Positions 35,242 through 62,117 of a DNA stretch of 64,000 nt are shown piece by piece. Every line of letters begins with the position of its first letter. Position 1 is the first letter of the stretch. Both the position numbers and the translations under genes were made by a program. The notes beneath the pieces are model-generated. The model was not told the DNA's origin. It was given only the letters and a program-made list of their open reading frames with translations, and did not search any database. Source of the stretch: a virus; the IMG/VR virus record IMGVR_UViG_3300050120_000135; one strand, 5' to 3'.

Positions 35242-37398
35242 TCAGCCCGCCTTACGGACCTTGGCAGCGTTCGGGAAGCGGCTGTTGAAGTCGCTGGTGG
35301 TGGCGCTGTCCTGCGCGATCGTGGCGTGCTGGCGCGCGCCAGGAGCCGGGATGGCGTCCCACAGGGCCTGCAGCGCCGGGAGCTCCTTGATCTTGGAGAC
35401 GTCGCGGTCCTGCATTTTGAACGCCTGACGATAGACGCCGTCGGCGCTGTCGAAGGCCATGTCGAGAACGCCGACGATCGGCTGCACGTGCGCCTTGGCC
35501 GCGGACACCGCGTTCATGCGCGCGATCGTGGCGTCGGTGTTGGCCTTCAGCGCCGCGTCCATCGCGCCCTTCGACACGAAGTCGGGCTTTTTCTTCTTTC
35601 CGTCGGGCCCGGCTTCGGGTTCGACAACAACGCCATCCTTGGCACCAGCCTTCGCCAGAGCCGCGGCCTTCGCGGCCTCGTCGTCGGGATCGCCTTCGCC
35701 CATGCCGGGCATGCCGGCAATCACGTCGTCGGGGACGCCCTTTTCCTTCAGGTAGGCACGCACGGCCTCCATGGGACCGCCGGCGTCCATCGACGTATCG
35801 TCGCCGTCGATATCGTCGTCGCTGTCGAGTTCGTTCGGGTCTCGCTCGAGGTCGCTATCCTCGACGGTCTTGTCGCCGTCGATCGACGCCATCAACTTCT
35901 CGACGCCCTCGATCACGCCGACCAAGTCGCCGTCCTGCGCCAGCTTGATCTTGCCAAGCGACTTGCGCAGCGCCTTGATGAAGTTCGGAGTCGACTCCTT
36001 GAACTTGCCGGGCTCGAACGTGCCGAGCGCGCCGGCGATATTCGGCATCGCTGCGTCCATTGCCAGCCGCGGCCGCAGGAACGCGGTCAGAGCGCCATAC
36101 GCAACGGTCGCCTTCATGCTCTTGAGTGCCATCTTCATAGTCTCCTGTTGGGGTTGCAGTGCTTCGTCAAGGGCGACGTCCGAACCGGCTCGTCCCTTTT
36201 TAACCAGGCAAACATGGTTTCCGACCATGTTGCGCATCACGCCGTCGTAGGGTTCGCCCTCGTAAGTCCCCGGCGTCATGTCCGCGTCGTATGAATAGGC
36301 GCTGGACAATTCTTTTTGCTTCTTGCTGTCGACGTGATCGCGGCCGTCGCGCGACCAGACTGCAAGGCTGTTGAACAGATACGGGTGCTGGTACTCGGCT
36401 TCGGAGCCGACGGTGCCGACCGTGATATCGCCATCGTGCTCGTCGGCCGAATGCGGCACGTGTCGATCGAGCAGCGGCAGATTGTGAAACGTCGAGGCTG
36501 CCTTCTTGATCTCGTCTGGATGGCGCAGCAACCGGTAGACCCTGCCGGGATCCAGGCCGAGCTCGTTACCCTTCGGGATCTCGCGGCCGTAATACGGATT
36601 GATGCCGGCCTTGGTGATCGGCGCGCGCTTGACGTGCAGCCGCTCGAACCCGTCGACGTTGCGGCCCTGCGACGTGTCTCGATCGAACGCCAGCTTGACC
36701 AGCACCCCCCGGCGCAGATCCTCCAGCCCTTCCGGCGCCCGGTCGAACGCCAGCTCCGGACCGCGGATGCCGGCGATATCGGCCGCCAAAGCGGCGAACG
36801 CCGCGTCCATGGCGCCAAGGCCGGGCTTCATGGGCCAATCGTTCGTGGGGGATATCCCCGACCCGCCGCAGCCAGCGCACCCACGGCCGTTACAAGCTGC
36901 GTGGACGCCGTCCTGCGCCGTATCGTCGGGGTCGTCGATCGCGGCCCACTCGGCAAGTTCCTCGCCGTCGGTGACATTTCGCTCGTCGATCGTCTTCAGC
37001 ACCGCCGGATGCATGGGCTTGGGCAGCATGTCGATCATGGCCCACGTGTAGCCCGTATGCTCGCCGTCGTTCAGCAGCGGAGCGAAGCGCTCGTCGACCG
37101 CCTGCGCGAACGTATGAAACACCATCCCGTTCGGGGTCTTGCGCTGGTCGAGCAGCCGGCGATCGCCGATCGGCGCTGTGCCACCGGTTTCCTCGGCCGC
37201 CTCGCGCTCCGCGCCGCGCAAGATGGACTCGCCGTCGTCGACCTTGCCACCAGGCAGGCACCAGTGCCCCGCATAGTTCTCCTCGGCCGGCGATCGGTGC
37301 AGGAACAGCATCGAGCCGTCCGGCGCCACGAACAGCGTACCCGCGGCATGGCCTTTCGCGCCGGCCTGGTCGACCAGCTGCGGCTTCTTGATCGCCAT
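35242..37398 (-). CDS. Nudix hydrolase fused to DUF2213-like prohead protease/scaffold protein
   Basis: GAGGTG RBS before MAIKKPQLV. Perfect Nudix box GGKVDDGESILRGAEREAAEETGG. The middle region (PITKAGINPYYGREIP...LSSAYSY...YDGVMRNMVGNHVCLVKKGRAG) is DUF2213-like. The C-terminus is acidic and helical. Confidence 0.85.
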   Translation of the reverse strand: MAIKKPQLVDQAGAKGHAAGTLFVAPDGSMLFLHRSPAEENYAGHWCLPGGKVDDGESILRGAEREAAEETGGTAPIGDRRLLDQRKTPNGMVFHTFAQAVDERFAPLLNDGEHTGYTWAMIDMLPKPMHPAVLKTIDERNVTDGEELAEWAAIDDPDDTAQDGVHAACNGRGCAGCGGSGISPTNDWPMKPGLGAMDAAFAALAADIAGIRGPELAFDRAPEGLEDLRRGVLVKLAFDRDTSQGRNVDGFERLHVKRAPITKAGINPYYGREIPKGNELGLDPGRVYRLLRHPDEIKKAASTFHNLPLLDRHVPHSADEHDGDITVGTVGSEAEYQHPYLFNSLAVWSRDGRDHVDSKKQKELSSAYSYDADMTPGTYEGEPYDGVMRNMVGNHVCLVKKGRAGSDVALDEALQPQQETMKMALKSMKATVAYGALTAFLRPRLAMDAAMPNIAGALGTFEPGKFKESTPNFIKALRKSLGKIKLAQDGDLVGVIEGVEKLMASIDGDKTVEDSDLERDPNELDSDDDIDGDDTSMDAGGPMEAVRAYLKEKGVPDDVIAGMPGMGEGDPDDEAAKAAALAKAGAKDGVVVEPEAGPDGKKKKPDFVSKGAMDAALKANTDATIARMNAVSAAKAHVQPIVGVLDMAFDSADGVYRQAFKMQDRDVSKIKELPALQALWDAIPAPGARQHATIAQDSATTSDFNSRFPNAAKVRKAG
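36979..37353 (-). other. Nudix domain of the protease/scaffold fusion
   Basis: The Nudix box lies at 37180..37251 (Gx5Ex7REUxEExGU fully satisfied). Confidence 0.85.
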
Positions 37399-37548
37399 CG
37401 GGCACCTCATGGAATTGGTGCCGGCGGGCGGGGCTAACCCACTCTGCGCGCCCCGTCGGGCCTCGCCGGCAAAGCCTGTGCGCGTCACGCGCGGCTGAAG
37501 TGAGGAAGCACCAAGCCGCCGTCTAAGCCGGCGAACCGGCCACGCACA

Positions 37549-37986
37549 TTACCTCAGAATATCAACCTTCAGGATAACCCCGGTCTCCCGGCGCCCCTGT
37601 CGCGCAGCTATCGTGCGCATAGCCTTATTGTTGACGTGCGTCGCCGACTGAATCGAGCGGACGTTCGGCAGGCCCTGCGCGTGACCGACTAATTCGTTCC
37701 ACATCGCGCTGTAGACGCCGCGACCGCGGAATTCCGGCAGGACGTAAGACTGATGCACCCAAATTCGCGCAGCATCGACGTCCCACGTGATGACGCCGAC
37801 AGGCAGGACGTCGCGACCGTTCTGCGCATAACCGACAAAGGCGTTCAGATTTGCGCCCATGTTCAGCTCGCCGTCGCTGAGACCATTCTCGACGTTTTCA
37901 AGCCACCCACGAACCGCGAGCTCGGCCGCCGGCGTGCTGTTGATGCCCTCGATCAGCTCGACGCGCAACGGTACCGGTAGGTTCAT
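37549..37986 (-). CDS. GNAT family N-acetyltransferase
   Basis: 145 aa. VHQSYVLPEFRGRGVYSAMWNELV...NNKAMRTIAARQG is the acetyl-CoA binding core. Confidence 0.8.
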   Translation of the reverse strand: MNLPVPLRVELIEGINSTPAAELAVRGWLENVENGLSDGELNMGANLNAFVGYAQNGRDVLPVGVITWDVDAARIWVHQSYVLPEFRGRGVYSAMWNELVGHAQGLPNVRSIQSATHVNNKAMRTIAARQGRRETGVILKVDILR

Positions 37987-38366: not shown

Positions 38367-38558
38367 TCAGCCTGCGTTGTCGCGGTGCTGCACGACGACG
38401 GCGCCGCTGCCCTGCATGCGTTCCATGTTCTCGCGGTGCGATCGCTTGTCGTTGCGGTCGATCAGCCGATAGACCACGACGGCGATCGTTAGGCCCACGA
38501 CCATTGCCGCGATCGGCCAGCTCTCCGAAATAATCTTCAGCGCTTCCATCCTGCTCAA
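38367..38558 (-). CDS. small single-pass membrane protein (63 aa)
   Basis: TM helix WPIAAMVVGLTIAVVVY. Confidence 0.55.
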   Translation of the reverse strand: MSRMEALKIISESWPIAAMVVGLTIAVVVYRLIDRNDKRSHRENMERMQGSGAVVVQHRDNAG

Positions 38559-38899
38559 TCCTGCGTTTCGTGGGCGAAGGGATCGGCAACATGCTCCGGA
38601 ATCGGCGGCATGGCAACTATGTCCGAGCGCCCGTGCCAGCTATCGCAGCAGAATTGAATGCGACCGTCGGCAATGATGTAGTGGCAAACCAGGTCCCGTT
38701 TGCTCTCCCGCGCTTCGGCCGAGCCCGGCTCTCCGGGCCATCGGGCGAATGTCTGCTTGAAGCTCGGTTCGAACGACGGGCGCGTGACGTTGCCGTTGAA
38801 CTTCCATCCGTCAGGCAGCGGGTGCATTTCCTCGCACGCCGGGCACCAGTGAAAATACCGGCTCCGGCCTCGACGAAGGATGGCGCTGACCTGGCTCAT
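38555..38899 (-). CDS. Cys/His-rich protein (114 aa), DUF6527-like, paralog of next gene
   Basis: HWCPAC...WKFNGNVTRPSFEPSF...CHYIIADGRIQFCCDSWHG. Confidence 0.6.
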   Translation of the reverse strand: MSQVSAILRRGRSRYFHWCPACEEMHPLPDGWKFNGNVTRPSFEPSFKQTFARWPGEPGSAEARESKRDLVCHYIIADGRIQFCCDSWHGRSDIVAMPPIPEHVADPFAHETQD

Positions 38900-39207
38900 G
38901 CCTTCAGCTCCGGCTCGTCCGTCTTCTGCACCGAGACACAGCGGCCGGCTTCAATATAACCGTGCCAGCATCCATTGCAGTTGATCGACGGCGAGAATGT
39001 CGGCTTATCGCGATCGCCGTTCCAGTCCCACTGCGCGATACCGCCGTTCAACCCTTGGCCGTCGCGCTTCAGCGACGTCTTGCCGGCGATCACGAGACCC
39101 TCGCAACGATGGCCGCGCAGCGGGCACTTAAATCCGAATCGCTGCTCTTGACCTGGTGTTGCGGGTTCGAAGTCGATCGTCTCGAACTGCACCTTGGCGT
39201 CGCTCAT
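38896..39207 (-). CDS. Cys/His-rich protein (103 aa), DUF6527-like
   Basis: WDWNGDRDKPTFSPSINCNGCWHGYIEAGRC. ATGA-coupled to the MuF gene. Confidence 0.6.
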   Translation of the reverse strand: MSDAKVQFETIDFEPATPGQEQRFGFKCPLRGHRCEGLVIAGKTSLKRDGQGLNGGIAQWDWNGDRDKPTFSPSINCNGCWHGYIEAGRCVSVQKTDEPELKA

Positions 39208-40031
39208 GAGAACCCCGCAATAACCGAGATCGAAACGCACCGGCAGTTCGGCAGCTCGCCGGGGATGATCCACTTCTTGACGTGCGGGTCGAACCAGCCT
39301 TTAGCGACGTCGTACAGCTTGCCGTTGTTCGCAACATGCGTCGGCCGCGGATGCTTGCCGGCGCCGCTATGGCGCCACTTCGCCTTCGTGATGCCGAGCT
39401 CCGTCTGCCGCGCGCGGTTCATGGCGCTGGTGGCAAGATTGTTCTGGCTCCTCGCAATGAACGCCGCGCGCCGTTTCGTGACGCCGTAGTTTTTCTCCAG
39501 CTCCTTCGCCAGATAGCCCATGTCACGGCCGCGCTGAACGGAGCGCATCACCATGCCCTCGACGTTCTTCAGGTACTGCTCCGGAATCGACTTGATGAGC
39601 GCTACGTTCTGCGCGCGGGTTGCGTTGAAGACGTCCCGCATGGGGCGCGTCATCTTGAACTTCACGCTGAAGCCACCGTCTCGCAGGATTTTGCGCAGCG
39701 CCGCGTCAGTGCGATCGCTCACCGCTCCCGTGAAGAAGTCCGCCAGATCCCACGCTGCTCGATCGAAGTTCTTCTGCCACCGGCGCACCAGCGCCCGGAT
39801 GGTCCGCGTGAGTTCGTTCGCCGGCAGGATATCGTCCATCGCCAGCAACGGCTCGTTGTTCTTGTAGCGCTTCAATACCCAAAACCTAACCGAGCGGTCC
39901 ATTTCCGCGATCAGCTTCTCCAGCTTCACGCGATAGGCGGCCTGCAAGCCTGCGTTCGGGTGCAGCGGCCGGAGAACGATCTCCTTGCCGCGAACCGGCT
40001 TGACTTCAGTTGCTCGAAACGTCCCGTGCAT
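39204..40031 (-). CDS. phage head morphogenesis protein (Mu F / SPP1 gp7 family)
   Basis: C-terminal KWRHSGAGKHPRPTHVANNGKLY...IPGELPNCRC. The start is uncertain (the ORF extends to 40130). Confidence 0.8.
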   Translation of the reverse strand: MHGTFRATEVKPVRGKEIVLRPLHPNAGLQAAYRVKLEKLIAEMDRSVRFWVLKRYKNNEPLLAMDDILPANELTRTIRALVRRWQKNFDRAAWDLADFFTGAVSDRTDAALRKILRDGGFSVKFKMTRPMRDVFNATRAQNVALIKSIPEQYLKNVEGMVMRSVQRGRDMGYLAKELEKNYGVTKRRAAFIARSQNNLATSAMNRARQTELGITKAKWRHSGAGKHPRPTHVANNGKLYDVAKGWFDPHVKKWIIPGELPNCRCVSISVIAGFS

Positions 40032-40212
40032 CGAGCTCTCCCGCGATCGAGCGCATCTCGCTGCGCGTCTGCTCGGCGATCGACAGCCCCTTGCGAATTG
40101 CGGTGCGCGCCTGGTCAGGGTGACCGCCATCGAAATGCCTGGCTGCAGTCTCGAACAGCTTCTTCACCTGGTCGACGTAGCCGGCGTCGATCGCGTCGGC
40201 CGCGCTAACCAT
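40006..40212 (-). CDS. hypothetical protein (68 aa)
   Basis: ORF track entry. Helical composition. Confidence 0.45.
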   Translation of the reverse strand: MVSAADAIDAGYVDQVKKLFETAARHFDGGHPDQARTAIRKGLSIAEQTRSEMRSIAGELDARDVSSN

Positions 40213-40468
40213 CCTTCCGAAACGATTCCGACGAACTGCCGGAACCCTCCCCGTTTTTTGAGTTCGAGCCCTCCAGCTCGGACAGCGCCGCTTCCATCTC
40301 GGCCAAGCCGCCTTCGACGTCGTCGAGATTCTCGCGGTGCTTGGCGAACACCGTCTCGCCGCGCCGGCGCAGATCCTCGCGCCGCGCCATCAGTTCGGTG
40401 GCCTGGTCGTCGAAGTTCTTCAGGTCGCCCTTAATCGCCGCGGCGAGCTCGCGAAACTTACCGGCCAT
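40205..40468 (-). CDS. coiled-coil hypothetical protein (87 aa)
   Basis: Internal ATG MAGKFRELAAAIKG... of ORF 40205..40558. Confidence 0.45.
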   Translation of the reverse strand: MAGKFRELAAAIKGDLKNFDDQATELMARREDLRRRGETVFAKHRENLDDVEGGLAEMEAALSELEGSNSKNGEGSGSSSESFRKDG

Positions 40469-40703
40469 CGTGATGCGTCCTTTGTGTCGGTCGATTGTGC
40501 GCGACAGGTGCAGGTCGAGCAGCTGCGCCAGCAGCAAGCATGGTTCGGGCTTCGGCAATGGGAATTCCCATCATGCGCGCGACCTTGACGACTTCCCGAT
40601 TCTGCTGGCGCCAAATCTCCTCGCGAGCGTTCTGGCGTTCACGAGGACCCGGGTGCCGCACAATACGCGGCGTCAGCTGGCGCTTTGCCGACTTCGCGAC
40701 CAT
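40458..40703 (-). CDS. hypothetical protein (81 aa)
   Basis: ORF track entry. Basic N-terminus. The C-terminal composition is doubtful. Confidence 0.35.
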   Translation of the reverse strand: MVAKSAKRQLTPRIVRHPGPRERQNAREEIWRQQNREVVKVARMMGIPIAEARTMLAAGAAARPAPVAHNRPTQRTHHDGR

Positions 40704-40876
40704 CAGTTTTCCTCGGCGTCGTCCTTCGGAGTGCCGCGCTCGCGCTTCACAGGCCGGCCAAGCTCGTCGACGATCTCCGGCTGAAACGGCGGGTCGCCTT
40801 CGTTGACGCGGTTCAGCGTCCCGTCATCGAGCATGCCGGGGGCGCGATCGTCAGGTTCGCGTGGCGACTTTGCCAT
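40703..40876 (-). CDS. hypothetical acidic protein (57 aa)
   Basis: The ATG lies 3 nt after the portal-fusion stop. Not in the ORF track (under 60 aa). Confidence 0.35.
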   Translation of the reverse strand: MAKSPREPDDRAPGMLDDGTLNRVNEGDPPFQPEIVDELGRPVKRERGTPKDDAEEN

Positions 40877-40878
40877 CT

Positions 40879-43800
40879 TCAGACTTCCTGCAGCACGATG
40901 TTGTTGCCGCTGCGCGAGACCACCTTGAACCTCGAGCCGGACTTGAACAGAACCTCGGCCTCGCTCGGGTGCGAGGACAGCTTCTGAATGTCCTTACCAT
41001 TCTTGCCGTGAACGGTAAAGTTGTGGTCTCCGGACCACGTCCCCTGATTTTTGCTCGTGCTCATGAAGCCACGCTCCTCGACCACGTAGCCGACTTCGTA
41101 AAGCGCTGACTGCTGACTATCGAGCGATGCCTTTCGATAGGTCGTCTCGTTGTGCGACGGCAGCTTGTCGAGACCGGCGTTCAGCGAACGCCTGAACTTG
41201 TCCTGTGCTTCGGTCATCTTGCCCGCGCGCAGCTGGTTGTTGACCGAGACGTAGTGCGAGCCACTGTAAGCGATGATCGGCACCGCATCAGCGGCCGTCA
41301 TGTACTTCGTCAGGCCCGCGCTCTTGACCTTGTTGAAGGCGGACTTGATGTACGCTTCGCTCGCCTTCGCCCCGCCGAACATCGCCTCGGCCGCCTCATA
41401 GTGCAGCTTCAGCGCCGGATCTTTGTCGAACTCGGCCTGGAGCTCGGCTTTGTCCTTCGCCAGCTTTGCCTCGGCTTTTTTCTTGGCGTCCTCGACTGCC
41501 TTCTTCTCGGTTGCGGCCTTCTCGGCTTTCGATGCGGAATCGTACTCGGCCTGCACCTTCGGCAGCATCGCCGTCAGGTCCTTGTAGTCCTGCACCTTCT
41601 GGTTCAGCTGCTCCGGCGTGAGATCGTTCTTGCCAGCGTACTTGTCGTTGAACTCCTTGATGAGCGTCACGCCGGCGGGTGCGCTGGTGCTGATCGGCAG
41701 CGTGGTCGACTTCGCGGCCTTCTTCAGCTCGGCCTCGGTTGCCTTCGGCGCCTTCGACTTTTCGCTGATGGCGCCGGGCGCCACCTTCGCGATCGCGGCC
41801 TTGCCAGCGGGAGAAGCAGCGTCGACGAACTTCTCGGCCCATGCCGGATTGTACTTCAGCAGGCCCTCGATCGCGTAGGCGTCCTTTTTGTCGACAGCGT
41901 CGGCGATCGCGCCGAGAAACGCGGGGTAGTCCTTCGGCGGCGTGTACGTCGCGCCCTCGGCCGGCTTCGGCGCTTCATTCAGCTTCGGCGCCGGCTTGCC
42001 AGCCATCGCAGCGAGACCCGCGTCCGCCTGCTTCTTCTCGGCGACCTGCTTGCTGATCTTGTCCTGCTGCGCGGCCTTTTCCGCTGCGAGCTCCTCGGCC
42101 GACATCTTCGTACCGAAATACTTGCCGTCCTTTTTCTCCAGCTTCATGCCGAGCGACTTGGCCTGGGCCGGCATCGAGACCGACGGCCAGCCCATGGTCG
42201 TCATCAGCTCCTTCGGTGTGACGCCGTTGGTCAACAGGTGCGCAATGTGTTCCTTCTTGGTCTTGAACTGCGATGCGGCAGCCTTCGACGCGTTCAGCGC
42301 TGCAGTGTCCGGATGATCGGGGTGACCGGGCAACAGCAGGTTCTCGAGCTCGTCGACGCTGTTGTCTTCCTTCTTCGCAGCGCCGGAGCCACCACCAGAG
42401 CCGAATTTACCATCCGGACTGCGCGGGTGCTTGCTCTCGTCGAACTGGCCCTCGTCCATAGCGAAGACGTCGGGTGCTACCTCGGTCATACCCTCGTCGT
42501 CGTCGCCCGCAAGCGGGCTGAACAGAATGTCCTGCGCGCGCTCGCCCTTCTTCTTGCGTCGGCGCATCGCTGCGATCGGAATGCCTGCGCTCGGCGCGGT
42601 AACGAGCTCGGCCTGGTCGAGCGCTGCCTCCATGATGGCGACGTCAGCGTCTTCGTCCTGCGCGATCGAGAACCGCCTCGCCATGTCCTGCTTGCGCGCG
42701 ATCAGCCGATCGGCCAGCGCCTTGTCATCACCGACGGCGCTCCGGATCTTGTCGTCGGGTATCGACGTGACGCGCTCGATCGAGGACTTCAGGTCCGCGT
42801 CCGACATCGAGCCGAACAGCCGGGCAGCGTCCGGCGACATGCTCTTGTCGCGCATGGTGTCGAGCTCGGTCACCTTGTCGCCGAACGCGTTGCCCTTCGG
42901 GCCGCCCTGTGCGCGGTATCGCAGCGAACCGCCGACGTCGAGCGTGTGCGGCTTGCCGGCCATCATGCCTTGGTTATCACCACCGGTGCCGGCAGCATCC
43001 CAATTCGACAACCACGCGTGCACGGCGAAGTCGGCAGCTGCTGCCTTCTTCTCCTCGGCCGAGAATTTGCTGATGTTGTTCTTGTCGAGGTCCTGCCACG
43101 CAGTCACGACGTGATCGGGCCCGGCCTCGCGATAGTCCAGCGTATTGACGCCGGCCAGCTTATACAGCTTGGCCGCGGTCTTCTCGTTGGTGACGTGGTC
43201 TTTGGTGGCGGGCTTCTTGACGTAGAACTTCTCGCCCGCGTCGTTGGCGTAGACGCCGCCCTCGTTGCTACCGAGCTTGCCGCCCTGCTTCTTCAGCTTC
43301 GACACGTTCAGCGGGTAAGACGAACTCTGCGAGGACCGCGACGCACCGGGCTTTGTCGATCGCGACTTGCCAGCCGTCGACGACTTCAGCGTCGTACCAC
43401 CGCCCCCCGACCCAAACTTGCCGTCGTCCGCTCGTGGATGGTCGCCTTCGGTCCATTCGTCACCTGCCAGTGCGGCCTCGATCATGGCCTCGTCGGTTGC
43501 GACCGTGCGGTCGGGCTCCTCGCCCCCGCCTTCTCCACCACCGTCCCCGCCGCCGCCAAACGGGTCTTCACTGCCGCCTGTCGGCTGCTCCGGCACGTCG
43601 TCGGGGTTGATATCCGAATACCGCGAGTCCGGCTGCGCGGCAACGGCCTTGCGAACCTCGCCCGGGTCGAGCACGCCGCTATCAATGCGGACCTGGTCGG
43701 TCTCGGCTTCGATCTTGTCAATCTCGGCCTTCTCCTTGTCGGTCATCGACCAGAGCGGCTCGAACTCGAACGTGATCTCCTCGTCAATCTCGCCCCACAG

Positions 43801-45333
43801 GTGGAGCATGATGAAGTGAATGCACGCCTGCAGCTGGTCGCGGAAGAACGATTCCTGGTAGGCGTGGATCCAGTCGTAGAACGCCCTGATCTCGCCCTCG
43901 GACGACGCGTTCAGCCCGGTCGGCGTAATGCCGAGCAGGATGATCAGCGGAATGCCCGACACCGACGACATCTGCTCCTGGCTTTGGGCCTGCAGCGCGT
44001 CGAGCGTGCCGAGCGGCGTCGAGACGTTGAAGAACTCCTCGGTATCCTTGTCGAGCGCGAACGCGCCGGCGTTCGAGCGCATAACGTTGAACAGTTCGAT
44101 GCGCTTTAGCGCTTCGACGCCGCCCTCCTGCAGGGAGCCGGCCATGTTCATATAGACGCCGCTGACCGAGAATGACTCGATCAGATCGGCCACCGCCTGC
44201 CTGGTGCGCAGCCAGTTGTCGACGTAGGGCTTCGCCATCTGCGACATCGACAAGCCGCCGAATGCATAGGCGGGCTTGAGAATGTCGGGCACTTCACGGC
44301 CGACAAAGCACATGAGACGCGAGCGATGGACTTCGATTCCGTTCGCGTACCAGCGATCGGGATTGTAGAAGCCCTCGCGCAGCGGGTTAGCGGCCTCGTA
44401 GGTCGCCGGATAGCACCACATCGGCTCGACACAGCGGAACGCCTTGATCGAGCCCTTGTGCACCTTGCCGCGGCTCGTGGCATTGCTGCCATTGCCAATC
44501 GACGACTTCAGCTCGACGTCGGCCTCCCTGCTGTCGTGCTTGAAGAACCGACCAGCACGCGGCTTGATGTCGATGAACAGGTGATATCGACCGAACCAGC
44601 CATCGCCCTCGGCGATATTGTAGAAGGCGTCCTTGAGCTTGAACTTGCGCATCGCATCTTCAAGTTCCTTGATGCGCTTCGCCTTCTCGGCGCTGGCTTT
44701 CGCCGCAACCGACTTCTGCACGCGGTCACGATCGGCCTGCTTCTGCTCTGCCGCCGTTGCGGCCGCGGCCTCCGGACCTTCGCCCGCCTCATCATCGAGC
44801 GGGTCGGCGCCGGCGGTCTCCTCGGTCAGCTGCTGGTCGGTCTCGCCAGTGTCCGCGCTGGTGGCGCTGACGACGTTCAACTTGATCCACTTGCGCGTCA
44901 TCTCGGTCGCAATGCGTTCCGAGATACGACGGTACTCCGGCCGCTGCGTCAGCTGCGCCAGATACGAATAGCCGATAAAGCCGATGCCTTCTTCGAACAG
45001 CGCACCGTCGCCACCGCCCCATTGCATCAGGCCTGCGAACGCGGTGCTGCCGAGCGCCTCGTCCAACGCCATCGGTTTGGTGTTCTTCGGCAGCACACCT
45101 GGCGGTGGCTCGAACGGCTGGAACGGGTTAGTGCCGGCGAACCCCGCAGCCTTCTTGCTCGCGCCTGCAGGCCTCAGCCGACGCGCATGCTCGATGACAG
45201 TGTCGCTGATTTTGAGCGGCTTCTTCTCGGCCGCGGTCGTTGCCGGCGCAGCTGCCTTCGCGCGCGCAGCCACCTTGGCCTCGCGCTTCGCACCCGCGCG
45301 ATTGAACCCGACGGGCAGCCTCGTCACTGTCAT
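40879..45333 (-). CDS. portal protein fused to a kinase-like domain and a C-terminal ADP-ribosyltransferase toxin domain (polyvalent protein)
   Basis: 1484 aa, ATGA-coupled to TerL. aa about 85-560 are portal-like (DUF1073/HI1409-like by recollection). aa 675-870 are kinase-like. aa 1340-1484 are ART-like: AYSGSHYVSVNNQLR, TTYRKA, FMSTS, SEAEVLF. Confidence 0.9.
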   Translation of the reverse strand: MTVTRLPVGFNRAGAKREAKVAARAKAAAPATTAAEKKPLKISDTVIEHARRLRPAGASKKAAGFAGTNPFQPFEPPPGVLPKNTKPMALDEALGSTAFAGLMQWGGGDGALFEEGIGFIGYSYLAQLTQRPEYRRISERIATEMTRKWIKLNVVSATSADTGETDQQLTEETAGADPLDDEAGEGPEAAAATAAEQKQADRDRVQKSVAAKASAEKAKRIKELEDAMRKFKLKDAFYNIAEGDGWFGRYHLFIDIKPRAGRFFKHDSREADVELKSSIGNGSNATSRGKVHKGSIKAFRCVEPMWCYPATYEAANPLREGFYNPDRWYANGIEVHRSRLMCFVGREVPDILKPAYAFGGLSMSQMAKPYVDNWLRTRQAVADLIESFSVSGVYMNMAGSLQEGGVEALKRIELFNVMRSNAGAFALDKDTEEFFNVSTPLGTLDALQAQSQEQMSSVSGIPLIILLGITPTGLNASSEGEIRAFYDWIHAYQESFFRDQLQACIHFIMLHLWGEIDEEITFEFEPLWSMTDKEKAEIDKIEAETDQVRIDSGVLDPGEVRKAVAAQPDSRYSDINPDDVPEQPTGGSEDPFGGGGDGGGEGGGEEPDRTVATDEAMIEAALAGDEWTEGDHPRADDGKFGSGGGGTTLKSSTAGKSRSTKPGASRSSQSSSYPLNVSKLKKQGGKLGSNEGGVYANDAGEKFYVKKPATKDHVTNEKTAAKLYKLAGVNTLDYREAGPDHVVTAWQDLDKNNISKFSAEEKKAAAADFAVHAWLSNWDAAGTGGDNQGMMAGKPHTLDVGGSLRYRAQGGPKGNAFGDKVTELDTMRDKSMSPDAARLFGSMSDADLKSSIERVTSIPDDKIRSAVGDDKALADRLIARKQDMARRFSIAQDEDADVAIMEAALDQAELVTAPSAGIPIAAMRRRKKKGERAQDILFSPLAGDDDEGMTEVAPDVFAMDEGQFDESKHPRSPDGKFGSGGGSGAAKKEDNSVDELENLLLPGHPDHPDTAALNASKAAASQFKTKKEHIAHLLTNGVTPKELMTTMGWPSVSMPAQAKSLGMKLEKKDGKYFGTKMSAEELAAEKAAQQDKISKQVAEKKQADAGLAAMAGKPAPKLNEAPKPAEGATYTPPKDYPAFLGAIADAVDKKDAYAIEGLLKYNPAWAEKFVDAASPAGKAAIAKVAPGAISEKSKAPKATEAELKKAAKSTTLPISTSAPAGVTLIKEFNDKYAGKNDLTPEQLNQKVQDYKDLTAMLPKVQAEYDSASKAEKAATEKKAVEDAKKKAEAKLAKDKAELQAEFDKDPALKLHYEAAEAMFGGAKASEAYIKSAFNKVKSAGLTKYMTAADAVPIIAYSGSHYVSVNNQLRAGKMTEAQDKFRRSLNAGLDKLPSHNETTYRKASLDSQQSALYEVGYVVEERGFMSTSKNQGTWSGDHNFTVHGKNGKDIQKLSSHPSEAEVLFKSGSRFKVVSRSGNNIVLQEV
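40882..41316 (-). other. ADP-ribosyltransferase (R-S-E, C3/VIP2-like) domain of the portal fusion
   Basis: Arg in TTYRKA, the STS motif in GFMSTS, and ExE in PSEAEVLF, in canonical order and spacing. Confidence 0.8.
42724..43311 (-). other. protein-kinase-like domain of the portal fusion
   Basis: GSNEGGVY (Gly loop), FYVKKP (Lys), NEKTAAKLY (Glu), HAWLSNWD (catalytic-loop-like) and LDVGGS (DFG-like). Resembles atypical actin-fragmin/PI-kinase-like kinases. Confidence 0.5.
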
Positions 45334-46994
45334 CGGCGGCGCCGGCGAGGCATGGCAGCCGCAGCCGCGAGAAGCTCGTCTGAAATCTTCATCGGCTTCC
45401 TCTCGACGCGCGCGAACAGCATCATGACGGCGTCCGCAAGGTTGGGCGACTTCACGCCGTCGGGCTGCTTGTTAATCAGCATCTTGCCGATCGTACTTTG
45501 CCCGTAGGTCGGCTGCGTGAGCTCGCCGACCAGCTTCGTGAAGTACGGCATGTTCGACGGTATGCAGATGATATCGTCGTGGCTGCAGGGTTTGCCTTCC
45601 TTGATAAGCCGGTAGGTATTGCGGAAGCGTGTCCGCAAATTCCACCAGCCCTGCGCCTTGCTGTTTTGGTAGTAGTCCTTGTTCTTGCGGCCCTTGACGT
45701 CTTCGCCATCGGGATCGAATGGCGATGCCGAACCGCGGAAGGCGATAACCTCGAGCTCGGCGATCTTCTCGCGCGCACGGGCTTCGTTTAAGATTCGAGC
45801 GTCGCCGCGAGCGCCGGCGCCGAGACCGTCGCCATCGTATTTGAACCGCGTGACGCCGTTCTTATCGGCCATAGCGAAGGCTTGCGCCACGCTGTCGAAA
45901 ATATCGCCGTCCTGCCCGGTCGGCCATTCGCGCAGGTCCGTCAGACGCACGCCATGCGCGGCGACGAACGCACAAAGGTCCGCGCCCTGGTCCGCGATGT
46001 CGAGAGCACCATGGCGATCGCCAGTCGGCACGAGACCGATTTTCTGATCCGCGTCGACCGCGGCCATCACCCATGCGTGCGGAATAACGACGCCGGTGAC
46101 CGACGCGTCGTAGTTAATATCGATCTCCTGCGCGATCACGACAGGGTCGTCGATATCCTCGATCTGCTTTTGATACCACGCCTCGTCTTTGCGTGGATCA
46201 TCACGCCAATGCAGCGTGAAGACTTCGACCTTGCCGCTGTGCCGGCGCACGGAGAACGAATTGCCGCGGCCCTTCGGTGTCGAGATGTCCTGCCGGCAGT
46301 TGGTCGTCTGCGACAGCGCGAAGTCGACCGACTTCGGGTTCAGCAGATGCGAGCTCTCGTCGACGAAGTAAATGCCCTTTCGATCGCCGCGGCCGATGTT
46401 GTCACCCGACTGGCCCGTCATGGTCGAGCCGTTGGGGAACAGAATGCGCATGTGCGGCGCGTGGCGGTCTTTGTCCCAAGTGCCTTTGAACTCCCGCGGG
46501 AGCTCCTGCATGAAGATGCGGGCTTTCCAGAACAGCGACTTCGGCTCGCCGAGCTTGTCGACGTAGTCCTCGGTCACGGAGCCGTAGCCGATGTTCATGC
46601 CTGCGTGAAACAGGCAAAGCGTGCAGCCGAGCGCTACCTCCAACCAGGATAGCCCGCCATCTCGCGACTTGTCGGTGAGACCAGGCTTGCGCTCTTTCCA
46701 TTTGCGCACGACGAACTTCAGCCACTCGACCTGCTTGTCGAACATGACGAACGGCATCATCGGGTCGGCGCCAATTTCAACGCGCCGCGGGTCGACCGTC
46801 ACTCCCCAATCGCTGATGAAGTCCCACGGGTTTTCCCGGTAGTGCTCACGAAGCCCGGCGAGCAGCGCCTCGCGATCGCGCTTCGGCATCGAGCGTATCG
46901 AAGCCAGCCGATCGGCGCGCTGCTGCCAGATGGCAGCGTAACCAGGCTCAGGGTTTTTCCAGTCGAAGGCGACGGCCTTCTTGGCCCTAGCCAC
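45330..46994 (-). CDS. terminase large subunit
   Basis: 554 aa. Lies upstream of the portal. ATPase/nuclease-type motifs such as GIYFVDESSHL. Confidence 0.9.
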   Translation of the reverse strand: MARAKKAVAFDWKNPEPGYAAIWQQRADRLASIRSMPKRDREALLAGLREHYRENPWDFISDWGVTVDPRRVEIGADPMMPFVMFDKQVEWLKFVVRKWKERKPGLTDKSRDGGLSWLEVALGCTLCLFHAGMNIGYGSVTEDYVDKLGEPKSLFWKARIFMQELPREFKGTWDKDRHAPHMRILFPNGSTMTGQSGDNIGRGDRKGIYFVDESSHLLNPKSVDFALSQTTNCRQDISTPKGRGNSFSVRRHSGKVEVFTLHWRDDPRKDEAWYQKQIEDIDDPVVIAQEIDINYDASVTGVVIPHAWVMAAVDADQKIGLVPTGDRHGALDIADQGADLCAFVAAHGVRLTDLREWPTGQDGDIFDSVAQAFAMADKNGVTRFKYDGDGLGAGARGDARILNEARAREKIAELEVIAFRGSASPFDPDGEDVKGRKNKDYYQNSKAQGWWNLRTRFRNTYRLIKEGKPCSHDDIICIPSNMPYFTKLVGELTQPTYGQSTIGKMLINKQPDGVKSPNLADAVMMLFARVERKPMKISDELLAAAAAMPRRRRR

Positions 46995-48527: not shown

Positions 48528-48765
48528 CCCGGTCGAATATACCCGGCTGATCGCCGTGCTCGAAAACGCCAAGTCGGTTCGCTCGATCGGCCTGACCGAA
48601 AAACGCATCGACATTCTGGTCGACACCCTCACCGTCGCGAGCTCCGGCATTGTCGAAGCGCTAGAGCAGCTGCTGAACTACACCGGCGGATGGGACCTTA
48701 CGGATCCCACTCACCCGATCGTCATTGCGCGAACCGCGCTCGTCAAAGCGCGGGAGGCACGCTGA
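48520..48765 (+). CDS. hypothetical protein (81 aa)
   Basis: ORF track entry. Overlaps its neighbours. Confidence 0.6.
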   Translation: MIDPVEYTRLIAVLENAKSVRSIGLTEKRIDILVDTLTVASSGIVEALEQLLNYTGGWDLTDPTHPIVIARTALVKAREAR

Positions 48766-49457
48766 TGAAGATCCTCGTAGGCTGCGAAACCTCCGGCATT
48801 GTTCGCAATGCCATGGCCGCTCTCGGTCACGACGTCTGGTCGGTCGACCTGCTGCCGGCGGAAGACCGCACCAACCGCCACATCATCGGCGACGTGCGCG
48901 ACTATCTGAACGACGGTTGGGACATGCTCGCCGTCATGCACCCGCCCTGCACGCGGCTTTGCAATAGCGGCGTGCGCTGGCTGCGCGAGCCGCCGACCAA
49001 GTTGGATGCCAGCACCTATCCGCTCGCCACCGTGATGGCGTACCGAACCTGGTCGCGTGCCGAACGGCTCGCGTTCATGTGGGACGAGCTCGGCAAGGGC
49101 GCCGATCTATTCTCAAAATGCTGGAACGCGCCGATCGAGAAGATCGCGCTCGAAAACCCGATCATGCACGGCCACGCCAAGGCGCTGATCGAGAACTACG
49201 AGCCGCCGGCGCAGTTTGTTCAACCTCACTGGTTCGGCCATCGCGAATTCAAGGCGACGGGGCTTTATCTGAAGAAGCTGCGCCCGCTGGTACCGACGAA
49301 CAAACTGATACCGCCGAAGTCGGGCACGAAAGAGCATCGCGCATGGTCGAAGGTGCACAACGCGCGCCCAGGCCCGAACCGCTGGAAAGAGCGGTCGAAG
49401 TTCTTCACTGGAATCGCAAACGCAATGGCCCTGCAGTGGGCCGGGGAGGCAGCATGA
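48765..49457 (+). CDS. C5-methyltransferase-like protein (PPC motif), function uncertain
   Basis: 230 aa from MKILVGCETSGIVRNAM. HPPCTRLCNSG resembles motif IV of cytosine-5 methyltransferases. Confidence 0.55.
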   Translation: MKILVGCETSGIVRNAMAALGHDVWSVDLLPAEDRTNRHIIGDVRDYLNDGWDMLAVMHPPCTRLCNSGVRWLREPPTKLDASTYPLATVMAYRTWSRAERLAFMWDELGKGADLFSKCWNAPIEKIALENPIMHGHAKALIENYEPPAQFVQPHWFGHREFKATGLYLKKLRPLVPTNKLIPPKSGTKEHRAWSKVHNARPGPNRWKERSKFFTGIANAMALQWAGEAA

Positions 49458-50465: not shown

Positions 50466-50908
50466 GAAAAGCAACCTGCCAACACTGCGGCGGACCAAAA
50501 GACCGGCGCTCTATTCAGTGCCGCGCATGCAAAGACATGCCGGCGTCGATGACAAAAAGGCCGCATAGCCCCGGAGGCCTGACGACGGACGAGGAGCCCG
50601 GAGCAATTATCTGCTCCGGGCTTTTTCTATGGTGCCGCGGGCCGCCTCGCGCTGGCTTCCCGCGGTCTCGACCGTGCGCCCGGCCGCGAGCCTACTACCG
50701 GATTGTTTTATACCTTCGCCCCGCCGGTTGCGCGTCCAGTGGCAGAGCATGCGAACCCGGATTCGCTTGGCAATCATGCAGCCTTGCGGCTGCGCTCTTT
50801 GACGACCTGCTCGAACGTCTTCTTCGTGCCCTGCAGCATCGCCTTCTTGCCGGTGAACTTGCACCATCGGCGAACCGCGGCATCGATATAGTGCGGCGAC
50901 ATCTCTGA
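50462..50908 (+). CDS. small CxxC protein; 3' end unreliable (frame runs through a terminator)
   Basis: ATGA-coupled MRKATCQHCGGPKDRRSIQCRAC... There is no in-frame stop before 50908, although a strong terminator sits at 50595-50628. Confidence 0.3.
   Translation: MRKATCQHCGGPKDRRSIQCRACKDMPASMTKRPHSPGGLTTDEEPGAIICSGLFLWCRGPPRAGFPRSRPCARPRAYYRIVLYLRPAGCASSGRACEPGFAWQSCSLAAALFDDLLERLLRALQHRLLAGELAPSANRGIDIVRRHL
50595..50628 (+). terminator. rho-independent terminator of the 48285-50590 plus-strand operon
   Basis: AGCCCGGAGC-AATTATCT-GCTCCGGGCT followed by TTTTCT. Confidence 0.7.
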
Positions 50909-52111: not shown

Positions 52112-52760
52112 GAAAACCTGCGAATGCGGCTGCGGCGCCGAGGTGAATAACCGGTTTGTGGTCGGCCACAACGGCGGCAGACCGGGAGAACGAAAACCGC
52201 GCACCATCTTTATCTGCGAGCACTGCGGCGAGGAATTCCGAGTTCTGATGCACCCAAATAATCAGAGGAAAGCCTGTCGATTTTGCTCTCACAAATGTCG
52301 GGACAATTTTCGTCGCGCTCACAAGGGCGCCGAGCATCCCAATTACAAGCGCACCGAGATTAAGTGCTCAGTTTGCCCAACCAAATTTTGGGCAACAGCG
52401 ACGATGATAAAAAACAATGCGACGTGCTCAAAAGAATGCGGTCGCATCGCTCATGATCGCCAGCTAGTCGGTAAGCACCCCCAGCGAATAAAACCGGACT
52501 GGCGCAACGAGGCTAAAAAACGCGATGGGTTCAAGTGCCGCATCTGCGCGTTTTCTGAGGTCATTCACGTTCACCACATCCAACCGAAGCGGTCAGGCGG
52601 CAAACACGAACTCGCCAATCTGATAACACTTTGCCCTAACCACCATGCGATGGTGCACGCGGGCATGATAACTGCAGAACGGCTGGCTGCGGTGATCGCC
52701 ACGCCTTTGCCAGATCAGACCGAGATGCCACTTGGCCGGGTCATCAATTTCCGAAAATAG
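52110..52760 (+). CDS. HNH endonuclease with N-terminal Cys-rich repeats
   Basis: 216 aa. FKCRICAFSEVIHVHHIQPKRSGGKHELANLITLCPNHHAMVH. Lower GC than the flanks. Confidence 0.85.
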   Translation: MKTCECGCGAEVNNRFVVGHNGGRPGERKPRTIFICEHCGEEFRVLMHPNNQRKACRFCSHKCRDNFRRAHKGAEHPNYKRTEIKCSVCPTKFWATATMIKNNATCSKECGRIAHDRQLVGKHPQRIKPDWRNEAKKRDGFKCRICAFSEVIHVHHIQPKRSGGKHELANLITLCPNHHAMVHAGMITAERLAAVIATPLPDQTEMPLGRVINFRK

Positions 52761-61995: not shown

Positions 61996-62060
61996 CCGCG
62001 TTCTGATTTATTTTTTCCAAGCCTGTGGACGGCGGGGGAAAACTTCGTAGTGGACAAGCG

Positions 62061-62079
62061 CTATACTGTTGGTTTAGTG
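62061..62079 (+). promoter_or_regulatory. conserved promoter-like motif, copy 3 (degenerate)
   Basis: CTATACTGTTGGTTTAGTG versus copy 1 CTATACCGTGAGTTTAGTG (16/19 identical). About 40-55 nt before the candidate starts. Confidence 0.45.
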
Positions 62080-62117
62080 AATGCAGGCCGGCGAATCGTC
62101 CGGTCATGGAGGAAGCC

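Follow-up and report, generated by a model that had tools for sequence, protein, structure and literature searches.

Phage T4 packages an ADP-ribosyltransferase (ART), Alt, in its head; the enzyme is injected with the DNA and modifies host proteins. In the accounts of polyvalent proteins by Iyer et al. (2017, 2022; PMC5512222, PMC9503650), ARTs are the commonest protein-modifying domain of such proteins, and fusions of ART, Nudix, 2H, PBECR and InPase domains to the portal are already reported, the portal-InPase fusion BcepF1.124 of a Burkholderia phage among them. Effectors fused to portal or MuF proteins are predicted there to be packaged in the head and injected. The MuF toxins of temperate phages combine a conserved head-protein N-terminus with a variable C-terminal toxin, an ART in 14%; their genes adjoin the portal gene, and delivery with the DNA has been proposed (Jamet et al. 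2017, PMC5576092; Zhang et al. 2012, PMC3482391). The portal protein gp19 of phages E217 and Pa193 has a C-terminal barrel that projects into the head; it was modelled to residue 528 of 765, residues 529-765 being invisible in cryo-EM, and the accessible parts of these reports mention no enzyme domain for the invisible residues (PMC10329688, PMC11456595).

The locus analysed here lies in a 64,000-nucleotide stretch of viral DNA (IMG/VR record IMGVR_UViG_3300050120_000135), called the window below. Positions 40879..45333 of its minus strand form a single gene of 1484 aa, a genuine "polyvalent portal" in which a portal protein of family PF06381 is extended at its C-terminus by ~900 aa. Like the polyvalent proteins of Iyer et al. 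(2017, 2022), it joins several effector domains on one polypeptide of the terminase-portal module; a kinase-like domain, an ART and a winged-helix-like domain share one chain, and the gene is the portal gene of the packaging module. The resemblance to the MuF polymorphic toxins lies in a conserved N-terminal carrier followed by a variable C-terminal ART. However, the anchor here is a PF06381 portal, of which 12 copies per virion are expected as against 1-2 for SPP1 gp7, the MuF protein of this phage is separate and effector-free, and no temperate features were found in the window.

The original prediction, made from the sequence alone, presented effectors sited on the portal as an unusual arrangement. 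This was overstated, since portal fusions are described in PMC5512222 and PMC9503650 and the present layout occurs in more than 100 clusters. What appears to be new, judged by sequence comparison, is a kinase-like domain that forms a large conserved family strongly co-occurring with ARTs, a swappable ART whose downstream ORF tracks its type, and an HPRxxxGKF boundary motif; the kinase-like and ART pairing, the motif and the covarying ORF do not figure in the available parts of the 2017 and 2022 accounts of Iyer et al. Taken alone, the domain-level description (portal, kinase-like domain, spacer, ART) is close to certain. The features of the locus are as follows.

45330..46994, minus strand: large terminase subunit, immediately upstream (PHROG 2, phrog_2, E 4.7e-24)
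43579..45333, minus strand: portal module, aa 1-585 (Pfam, PHROG and solved-portal matches)
43321..43578, minus strand: linker 1, aa 586-671, Gly/Asp-rich, with a conserved EDPFGGG, the boundary motif and a Ser-rich tail
43414..43440, minus strand: HPR..GKF part of the linker 1 boundary motif DEWTEGDHPRADDGKFGSGGGG
42655..43320, minus strand: protein-kinase-like domain, aa 672-893 (AF2 and Foldseek)
42382..42654, minus strand: linker 2, aa 894-984, acidic
42403..42429, minus strand: HPR..GKF part of the second (linker 2) boundary motif FDESKHPRSPDGKFGSGGGSG
41404..42381, minus strand: spacer, aa 985-1310 (AF2 secondary structure and pLDDT)
40882..41403, minus strand: ART module, aa 1311-1484, an N-terminal helical subdomain and a beta core
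40879..40881, minus strand: terminal stop codon of the portal-fusion gene
40703..40876, minus strand: 57-aa acidic ORF starting 2 nt past that stop, candidate cognate partner of the ART
40205..40468 and 40006..40212: conserved small ORFs (87 and 68 aa) between the 57-aa ORF and the MuF gene
39204..40031 (or to 40130), minus strand: MuF head-morphogenesis gene, effector-free (PF04233, E 2.2e-14)
35242..37488, minus strand: head protein with NUDIX, a Cys-rich segment and PF09979 (DUF2213 / Pa193_gp24)

The portal module and its genomic setting

The junction sequence revealed an ATGA overlap between the start codon of the portal-fusion gene and the stop codon of the large terminase, by which the two are translationally coupled. 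The original prediction of a single 1484-aa ORF coupled in this way to the large terminase, whose strand it did not state, was borne out by this overlap and by the phrog_2 match of the terminase. Every motif it had named is present in the protein: GSNEGGVY at aa 688, FYVKKP at 703, HAWLSNWD at 772 and LDVGGS at 798 in the kinase-like domain, and TTYRKA at 1397, FMSTS at 1423 and SEAEVLF at 1457 in the ART.

The PF06381 core spans aa 123-547 (E 1.4e-70; 238 bits against a cut-off of 33.8); the N-terminal ~120 aa of the portal are basic and Ala-rich, and an acidic insert lies within the core at aa ~160-235. The module also matched the PHROG 146 portal family (E 2e-97) and, partially, TIGR01555 (HI1409; 82 bits against a cut-off of 196). 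Solved portals matched by sequence were E217 gp19 (8fvh, E 1.4e-35), Pa193 gp19 (9b41, E 1.1e-34) and the Pam3 portal (E 1e-11), and the PF06381, E217 and Pa193 matches agree with the earlier assignment of ~560 aa to the portal. The window protein and gp19 of E217 and Pa193 (PDB: 8FVH, 9B41) share a portal family and are all extended at the C-terminus, although the extension is ~240 aa in gp19 and ~900 aa here; their head modules are similar as well, with Pa193_gp24, E217_gp27 and MuF-type neighbours. A scan of genome contigs returned mainly prophages with short portals, the best match being that of Bradyrhizobium sp. STM 3843 (49%).

The gene order TerL-portal-MuF-PF09979-capsid is found in the window and in its relatives. 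The MuF gene, called as a 275-aa gene on a contig with the identical portal fusion, contains a MuF domain alone, in agreement with its earlier description as toxin-free. The product of 35242..37488, with Pfam matches to NUDIX (E 9.5e-16) and DUF2213 (E 4.1e-42), is a second enzyme-bearing head protein of this phage. In the relative P0028, the kinase-like domain lies inside this head protein, in the layout NUDIX, kinase-like domain, DUF2213.

The portal-kinase-like-ART layout was found in more than 100 protein clusters from phage contigs of ~70-76 kb, and of the layouts seen in 247 related proteins, portal-motif-kinase-motif-spacer-ART is the most frequent. A tblastn search with the whole protein across 50,697 cultured-phage records returned portal-only matches and no full portal-kinase-ART layout. 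The kinase-like domain is also carried by other head anchors (HK97-type portal, MuF, NUDIX with DUF2213), and some cultured phages have the kinase-like and ART pair in virion-associated polyvalent proteins that contain no portal. Yersinia phage fHe-Yen8-01, for which a literature search found no paper, encodes such a protein of 2146 aa, annotated in GenBank as "phage particle associated protein". Some homologues contain a Hint autoprocessing domain (PF13403).

The kinase-like domain, boundary motifs and spacer

The domain at aa 672-893 was confidently modelled with a bilobal kinase fold (AF2; pLDDT 92.3, pTM 0.90). Its best match in the PDB by Foldseek was Helicobacter pylori CtkA (JHP0940; PDB: 3AKJ, 3AKK, 3AKL; E 5e-5, probability 1.0, TMq 0.58-0.62), with further matches to APH, RIO, VPS34/PI4K (PI3K/PI4K kinases) and LepB. 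Foldseek probabilities were 0.99-1.0 for CtkA, APH(2''), RIO1/2 and MPH, and 0.96-0.98 for VPS34, PI4KIIIb and LepB; N-acetylhexosamine kinase was another of the small-molecule-kinase neighbours, and matches in BFVD included viral Ser/Thr and PI3K kinases. CtkA, itself an effector kinase, has its gene on the mobile element ICE tfs4. It differs from the present domain in its catalytic-loop motif and in being a stand-alone protein, and no sequence similarity between the two was detectable in a PDB profile search. The same search matched Legionella LepB weakly, at the G-loop (E 0.084), which is a hint only, and no match to the domain was found in Pfam (E<=10), PDB sequences, NCBIfam or PHROGs.

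Residues that may form the active site are the G-loop G688-S-N-E-G-G693, K706, E717, N777/D779, D786/N787 and D799-V-G-G. The AF2 model places GSNxGG ahead of strand 2, K706 within strand 3 and E717 in the helix that follows, all of them 96-98% conserved, and N777, D779, D786, N787 and D799-x-G-G appear at the places expected of the catalytic loop and DFG motif, with atypical spacing; the catalytic loop reads N-W-D...D-N as against HRDxxxxN. In a set of 257 instances, the most distant with 22% identity to the domain of the window, conservation was 96% for K706, 98% for E717, 100% for N777, 96% for D779, 93% for D786, 97% for N787 and 96% for D799. These data suggest a catalytically intact-looking domain and a putative enzyme. 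The kinase-like domain of the original prediction thus gains support from the model (pLDDT 92), the kinases retrieved by Foldseek and the conserved Lys, Glu, Asp and Asn positions. The same prediction had tied its kinase and ART calls to the recovery of both folds by Foldseek or a profile search, and Foldseek recovered both.

An exhaustive profile search located the domain in 5273 representative clusters, overturning the impression of rarity left by a word-indexed search with 13 relatives. Among 146 representative proteins that carry it, 100 also contain an ART and 45 a NUDIX domain. Kinase-fold enzymes may be AMPylases, glutamylases or small-molecule kinases, and a possible, though doubtful, reading is that the middle domain has the kinase fold without being a protein kinase: a pseudokinase scaffold, an AMPylase-type enzyme, or a small-molecule or nucleotide kinase sharing NAD/ADP-ribose chemistry with the ART and NUDIX domains. 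This co-occurrence is in line with such a role, as are the lack of curated kinase-family membership by sequence, the atypical N-W-D...D-N loop and the small-molecule (APH, MPH, N-acetylhexosamine) and lipid kinases among the structural neighbours. However, the best structural match, CtkA, is a protein kinase, and conservation of 93-100% at the Lys, Glu, Asp and Asn positions makes a pseudokinase improbable. There is also no obvious match to the polyvalent-protein kinase, which, as described by Iyer et al., has different signature residues and is found mainly in Verrucomicrobia, Chlamydia and Bacteroidetes.

The linkers on either side of the kinase-like domain each contain a motif of the consensus (F/W)xExxHPRxxxGKFGSGGG. 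HPRxxxGKF was observed 320 times in the 247 related proteins as against 0.55 in shuffles, and it marks module boundaries. The motif is missing from the Dolphis and Yersinia polyvalent proteins and is therefore not universal to proteins with a kinase-like domain and an ART.

The spacer had been described as a long Lys/Ala-rich region. Such a region is present, but the AF2 model predicts more than low complexity: a winged-helix-like domain (aa ~1011-1076), a long helix, a disordered stretch and a helical bundle (aa ~1136-1184), in this order, with a helix of ~65 residues joining the spacer to the ART. The winged-helix-like part weakly resembles DUF3489 (PF11994; E 0.24 here and E 3e-5 in the homologue P0045).

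The ART domain and its downstream ORF

The C-terminal domain matched the Pfam families PF03496 (aa 1332-1474; E 4.3e-9, 36.4 bits against a cut-off of 23.4) and PF01129 (E 1.9e-5, 24.5 bits against 22.3). Its closest solved relative is Tre1, a type VI secretion system (T6SS) ART of Serratia proteamaculans (PDB: 6DRH, 6DRE), which shares the R / S-T-S / E-x-E residues and was matched both by sequence (6drh_B, E 8.7e-16, 29-30% identity) and by fold (TMt 0.79-0.81, rmsd 2.4-2.6 Å, Foldseek with an AF2 model in which the ART region has pLDDT >90); XopAI, ExoS/T, HopU1, Vis and C3 followed in the Foldseek search. The catalytic residues assigned by motif are R1400, S1425-T-S and E1458-A-E1460, and R1400, S1425, E1458 and E1460 are invariant among 35 homologues, down to 24% identity. 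Together with the Pfam and Tre1 matches, this invariance upholds the complete R-S-E core proposed at the outset. On sequence and model, aa ~1340-1484 are a predicted Tre1/ExoS-like R-S-ExE mono-ADP-ribosyltransferase, probably with Arg specificity. While Tre1 is delivered by a PAAR/T6SS spike, the window ART is carried on the portal, which forms the N-terminus of the protein; Pfam detected no PAAR or T6SS domain on it.

Tri1, the immunity protein of Tre1, is an ADP-ribosylhydrolase. The neighbour of the window ART is instead a 57-aa acidic ORF, and no Tri1/ARH-like or macrodomain immunity gene was found beside the ART. The 57-aa ORF was called as a gene on a contig with the identical portal fusion, has no recognisable fold or family and, like the ORFs of 87 and 68 aa, had no NCBIfam match. 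An 81-aa ORF at 40458..40703 was rejected as a gene, being neither conserved in the relative L030 nor called on the identical contig.

Related backbones carry ARTs of at least four types. Homologues of the 57-aa ORF follow type-A ARTs in 4/4 loci, whereas unrelated small ORFs stand behind type B/C ARTs (5/5 loci) and type D ARTs (2/2), whatever the similarity of the portals; the small-ORF family thus tracks the ART type in 11/11 loci, with three unrelated families for A, B/C and D. Between the window and P0162, identity is 79% for the portal but 36% for the ART, and the downstream ORFs are unrelated; between P0162 and P0208 it is 51% (portal), 71% (ART) and 65% (downstream ORF). The ART end and the tiny ORF behind it behave as an exchangeable cassette, and the 57-aa ORF resembles a cognate immunity/inhibitor or chaperone gene, for which it is a candidate.

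Proposed delivery of the extension and alternative readings

We favour, with moderate confidence, the whole account of a polyvalent portal that includes delivery of its effectors into the host. Incorporation into the dodecamer would place up to 12 effector arrays inside the head at the DNA exit, because the portal C-terminus of the solved homologues points into the capsid. A domain covalently tied to the portal ring would not be injected unless cut, and proteolysis in the linkers would probably detach the array from the core of the portal. The long flexible linkers, the conserved boundary motifs and the Hint domains of some homologues suggest release, the Hint domains being consistent with such a step. 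Once free, the array would exit together with the DNA and act on host proteins as infection begins, through phosphorylation (or a related nucleotide-dependent transfer) and, like T4 Alt, through ADP-ribosylation. The co-translated 57-aa acidic protein would most likely keep the ART silent, or escort it, in the producing cell. T4 Alt is a functional precedent for the proposed mechanism, yet it is a separate internal protein rather than a portal fusion, and none of the searches on the window protein matched it. Points against delivery are that the 237 C-terminal residues of E217 and Pa193 gp19 that are invisible fit disorder and removal alike, and that the PF09979 neighbour, a "protease" in PHROGs, belongs to a family that newer Pfam names after Pa193 gp24, which is a putative scaffolding protein in the structural work (PMC11456595).

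It is also conceivable, although we regard it as unlikely, that the extension stays on the portal undelivered and acts in the producer cell or at the packaging vertex. Its targets there could be host or defence proteins able to sense the portal or terminase, or else it could aid assembly or contact the packaged DNA end via the winged helix. The covalent fusion, in which no protease site was identified, fits this reading, as does the spacer's winged-helix-like domain, possibly DNA-binding in the model; head-associated ARTs may counter immunity against the packaging apparatus, an alternative raised by Iyer et al. (2022, PMC9503650). However, the kinase-like and ART pair also occurs portal-free, in virion-associated polyvalent proteins, and on MuF and DUF2213 anchors, so that a cargo logic fits better than a portal-specific function, and the linkers, boundary motifs and Hint domains argue for release.

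Distinctly less likely is a system that serves chiefly as a polymorphic toxin for competition, in which particles would bring a growth-arresting ART into bacteria that lack immunity and the small immunity protein would shield phage-carrying cells. The joint swapping of the ART and the ORF immediately downstream on similar backbones is a hallmark of toxin-immunity pairs, Tre1, the nearest ART of known structure, is an antibacterial T6SS toxin, and the MuF toxin model of temperate phages (PMC5576092) provides a parallel. In contrast, the phage is not evidently temperate: neither an integrase nor a repressor turned up in the ORFs tested, which come from a window covering all but ~9 kb of the ~72.7 kb genome, and the phage has replication genes of its own (a primase-helicase and a polymerase-exonuclease-like protein) and several methylases. 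The small ORF also lies in the late operon and would thus be unexpressed from a repressed prophage.

Spurious long ORFs do arise in high-GC DNA, such as the 985-aa plus-strand ORF at 41152..44109, rejected as a shadow of the 1484-aa gene, but the notion that the 1484-aa ORF is itself a chance GC-rich ORF, a frameshift or an assembly chimera of a portal and a separate effector gene is refuted and has practically no probability left, since one frame carries significant domain matches along its whole length, GC3 is 0.72-0.88 across all segments, the protein recurs identically on three contigs from independent datasets, and more than 100 diverged homologous clusters keep the same full-length fusion layout. 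The three contigs and the clusters equally contradict the stop or frameshift between portal and extension that the original prediction had named as its possible undoing.

Returning to the delivery account, a more far-reaching scheme, which we put forward tentatively and consider doubtful as a whole, is that the portal C-terminus serves as a dedicated platform that loads a fixed dose of 12 effector arrays, which would be cut loose at the boundary motifs and expelled before or together with the DNA, with a hitherto uncurated PKL enzyme family and the ART acting in concert and the ART and its acidic partner forming a polymorphic toxin-immunity cassette. If this is true, the kinase-like domain and the ART may modify one host target in two steps, or may act together with NUDIX on NAD/ADP-ribose-derived immune signals, and the ART cassette would be a phage counterpart of T6SS/Rhs effector swapping.

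The kinase-like family, which counts ~5,000 representative clusters yet is absent from Pfam, NCBIfam and PHROGs, constitutes a sizeable annotation blind spot in phages, and the strength of its association with ARTs is a hint that the two may have a coupled chemistry on host targets or defences. Portal-fused effectors have so far been a purely computational category. The locus provides a concrete model that gene synthesis can supply, with two putative enzymes of defined catalytic residues, candidate processing motifs and a candidate neutralising partner, and it poses a mechanical question, namely by which route cargo tied to the portal ring would exit.

Gene integrity and the portal module

The portal-effector protein is encoded by a single ORF, whose parts are as follows.

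Parts of the portal-effector gene and its product (all on the minus strand)
40879..45333 (-): portal-effector ORF, 1484 aa
aa 1-585 (-): portal module (PF06381, PHROG 146, solved gp19 portals)
aa 586-671 (-): linker 1, Gly/Asp-rich, with a conserved EDPFGGG and then DEWTEGDHPRADDGKFGSGGGG
43414..43440 (-), aa 633-641: boundary motif, copy 1
aa ~672-893 (-): kinase-like domain (AlphaFold2 and Foldseek)
aa 894-984 (-): linker 2, holding the second boundary-motif copy, FDESKHPRSPDGKFGSGGGSG
42403..42429 (-), aa 970-978: boundary motif, copy 2
aa 985-1310 (-): spacer (AlphaFold2 model, pLDDT 85 overall)
aa ~1311-1484 (-): ADP-ribosyltransferase (ART), PF03496 and PF01129, both above curated cut-offs

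Translation of the ORF placed all seven motifs quoted in the original prediction where they had been reported, and the portal ATG overlaps the stop codon of the upstream gene, a PHROG 2 large terminase, in the ATGA coupling described there. A frameshift or chimera was excluded, because GC3 is 0.72-0.88 in each segment of the minus-strand frame, an identical protein is present on three independent contigs (the longest 72,870 bp, another 72,660 bp), and the full-length layout is kept by >100 diverged clusters. The observation behind the prediction is confirmed. A 985-aa ORF opposite the portal gene (41152..44109, +) is a shadow ORF, as is typical in DNA of 62% GC, and was dismissed as a gene.

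The portal identity of the N-terminal part was supported by three agreeing matches: PF06381 spans aa 123-547 (Pfam, E 1.4e-70), PHROG 146 'portal' is matched at E 2e-97, and the solved gp19 portals of Pseudomonas phages E217 and Pa193 (8FVH, 9B41) are matched at E ~1e-35. The E217/Pa193 portals are modelled only at residues ~94-528 of 765, with no density for residues 529-765, and their C-terminal barrel points into the head (PMC10329688, PMC11456595). Based on this homology, the ~900-aa extension would begin inside the capsid, above the portal channel.

Kinase-like domain, spacer and ADP-ribosyltransferase

No match to the kinase-like domain came from Pfam at a cut-off as loose as E<=10, nor from NCBIfam, PHROGs or the sequences in the PDB. 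An AlphaFold2 model built with 14 sequences reached a pLDDT of 92.3 and a pTM of 0.90, and Foldseek against the PDB returned only kinase-fold proteins, headed by H. pylori CtkA (E 5e-5, probability 1.0, TMq 0.58-0.62) and followed by aminoglycoside and macrolide phosphotransferases, RIO kinases, VPS34/PI4K, and Legionella LepB. The closest predicted viral structures were unannotated parts of large phage proteins: those of Gordonia phages, a fusion to an 'HK97 portal', another to MuF, Nudix fusions, and proteins named 'ADP-ribosyltransferase'. Ser/Thr and PI3K kinases of giant viruses ranked next.

In the model, GSNEGG lies before strand 2, K706 in strand 3, and E717 in the following helix, while N777-W-D779...D786-N787 is followed by two short strands and then D799-V-G-G. 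A G-loop, a Lys-Glu pair, a catalytic loop, and a DFG-equivalent would be expected to follow one another in this order. These candidate active-site residues are 93-100% conserved across 257 instances with identity to the window domain down to 22%, which argues for an active enzyme. Since the catalytic-loop spacing is atypical, we infer both the residue assignment and the substrate class, and one alternative is that the middle domain performs chemistry other than that of a protein kinase. The kinase-like call itself was right, given the confident model, the kinase-fold-only matches, and the conserved residues.

An exhaustive profile search with this domain returned 5273 representative clusters (2128 at E<=1e-30), and the domain was found mostly in proteins of 800-3400 aa. 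Among the best 146 of the 5273 clusters, ART occurs in 100, portal in 48, and NUDIX in 45. What is new here is a large kinase-like family with a conserved active site that is absent from the curated libraries searched and that, by domain co-occurrence, is strongly linked to ARTs and to several kinds of head-protein anchor. The available text of the 2022 NAD/ADPr survey (PMC9503650) does not mention such a kinase, and the family, compared by description, is not an obvious fit to the polyvalent-protein kinase of 2017 (PMC5512222).

The spacer had been predicted as a Lys/Ala-rich region. Its composition agrees, but the segment is more than that: the AlphaFold2 model shows a winged-helix-like unit (aa ~1011-1076), which weakly resembles DUF3489, together with a bundle of helices and one long helix of ~65 residues.

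The R-S-E ART core was likewise correctly recognized. Beyond the two Pfam families, the T6SS toxin Tre1 comes closest among solved structures by sequence (E 8.7e-16) and also leads the Foldseek matches (TMt 0.79-0.81, rmsd 2.4-2.6 Å, 29-30% identity), ahead of XopAI, ExoS/T, HopU1, Vis, and C3. Residues R1400, S1425, E1458, and E1460 are invariant in 35 ART homologues. An E-x-E ARTT motif usually signifies arginine-specific transfer. We consider the domain-level description of the protein nearly certain.

ART cassette and genome context

Between the window protein and its homologue P0162, the portals are 79% and the kinase-like domains 82-92% identical, but the ARTs only 36%, and the downstream ORFs are unrelated. 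P0162 and a second homologue, P0208, are 51% identical in the portal, 71% in the ART, and 65% in the downstream ORF. Across 11 loci, the first downstream ORF belongs to three unrelated families that track the ART type (type A, 4/4 loci; types B/C, 5/5; type D, 2/2). The small ORFs of the window are:

40703..40876 (-): type-A ART partner ORF, 57 aa
40205..40468 (-): 87-aa ORF, coiled-coil-like, between the ART partner ORF and MuF
40006..40212 (-): 68-aa ORF, between the ART partner ORF and MuF

The partner ORFs are tiny and acidic (type D also Cys-rich), and they overlap the portal stop or begin within a few bases of it. These comparisons indicate that the ART end is a swappable cassette, and the pattern is a signature of toxin-immunity or toxin-chaperone pairs, with a putative role for the partner. 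The 87-aa ORF differs from the 57-aa ORF in that it does not vary with ART type; it is kept in both relatives compared (43% identity in locus L030, 64% in L032), and the 68-aa ORF has a 56% match in L030 and none in L032. No family match was found for either. An 81-aa ORF (40458..40703, -) is neither conserved in relatives nor called on the identical contig, so the ~230 bp that separate the 57-aa ORF from the 87-aa ORF are probably a non-coding spacer.

The window is a myovirus-type phage genome with a tail sheath, a tape-measure-like protein, and a major head protein, as well as a primase-helicase and several methylases. The gene order is TerL, portal, three conserved ORFs of 57, 87, and 68 aa, MuF, two BubE-like ORFs, GNAT, NUDIX+PF09979, minor capsid protein, and major capsid protein, and it is the same in a 58%-identical relative. 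This head module is similar to the one found in the Pbunavirus group (Pa193_gp24 and E217_gp27 families). As predicted, the 275-aa MuF carries no effector. Other genes of interest are:

38555..38899 (-) and 38896..39273 (-): two adjacent small paralogous ORFs just downstream of MuF, PHROG 3362, both labelled PF20137 (BubE) on an identical contig
37549..37986 (-): small GNAT-like acetyltransferase (weak match) between MuF and the NUDIX-PF09979 gene, conserved in relatives' loci L030, L032, and L037
35242..37488 (-): NUDIX+PF09979 protein, 748 aa, a second enzyme-bearing head protein
50774..52207 (-): DNA modification, ParB-N and N6/N4 methylase fusion
4356..6290 (+): DNA modification, second ParB-N protein
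48690..49457 (+): DNA methyltransferase (PHROG 757)
62025..63476 (+): DNA modification, DUF4942 and SAM-methyltransferase

DNA-modification genes are unusually dense in this genome. The 748-aa head protein has NUDIX at aa 48-162, a Cys-rich 'HAACNGRGCAGCGG' segment, and PF09979 (DUF2213 / Pa193_gp24); in homologues P0028 and P0002, the kinase-like domain sits in the NUDIX+PF09979 protein and not in the portal.

Distribution, boundary motif and proposed delivery

Searching with the full-length protein gave 546 proteins at E<=1e-20. Of the best 120 of these, all but one are 830-2270 aa long, nearly all carry PF06381, most carry PF03496 and often NUDIX, and many lie on 70-76 kb contigs. Among 247 fetched proteins, the commonest layout in our local domain survey was portal, motif, kinase-like, motif, spacer, and ART. 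Our cultured-phage search found the portal-kinase-ART fusion in no cultured phage; the kinase-like and ART pair occurs in the portal-less giant proteins gp117 of Pseudomonas phage Dolphis and gp129 of Yersinia phage fHe-Yen8-01, the latter annotated as 'phage particle associated protein'. Polyvalent proteins, including portal fusions with PBECR, 2H, and InPase (BcepF1.124), were defined by Iyer (2017, PMC5512222), and MuF polymorphic toxins were described by Jamet (2017, PMC5576092). Taken together, Iyer (2017) and Iyer (2022, PMC9503650) also list ART and Nudix among the domains joined to portals. The premise that portal-borne effectors are unusual was not upheld, because such fusions were already published (e.g., PMC5512222). 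The protein is a portal-anchored polyvalent/polymorphic effector, and the interpretation given in the original prediction is partly supported: it had the domains right and overstated the novelty. In the literature accessible to our search, no experimental study of a portal-fused effector was found.

The boundary motif, (F/W)xE(S/G)(D/K)HPRxxxGKFGSGGG, stands once before each effector module, and the median distance to the kinase-like domain that follows it is 29 residues. In 247 related proteins it was counted 320 times versus 0.55 in shuffles, and it was found neither elsewhere in the window nor in the Dolphis or fHe-Yen8-01 polyvalent proteins. It may serve as a site of processing, as a docking peptide, or in some other way.

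We propose that the assembled portal would set up to 12 effector arrays inside the head, each about 95 kDa and together roughly 1.1 MDa, a volume that would be small relative to the ~72-kb genome by rough estimate. Cleavage in the linkers would free the arrays. Among the homologues (P0184 and P0069 were noted), some carry a Hint autoprocessing domain (PF13403) and others PF23474. Hint is an autoproteolytic module of polymorphic toxins, and its presence suggests that some members of the family are freed by cutting themselves. Freed arrays would leave with the DNA and, like T4 Alt, could modify host targets, adding phosphate (or another nucleotide-derived group) as well as ADP-ribose. In the producer cell, the ART would be held back or escorted by the 57-aa protein. 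As a whole, this delivery model seems to us evenly poised between right and wrong. In its main rival, the extension would remain part of the portal and work at the vertex or within the producer cell, for instance against defences that sense the portal; a role as a competition toxin is another. Experimental follow-up is warranted by three features: the kinase-like family that curated libraries lack, the cassette of ART and partner ORF, and the boundary motif.
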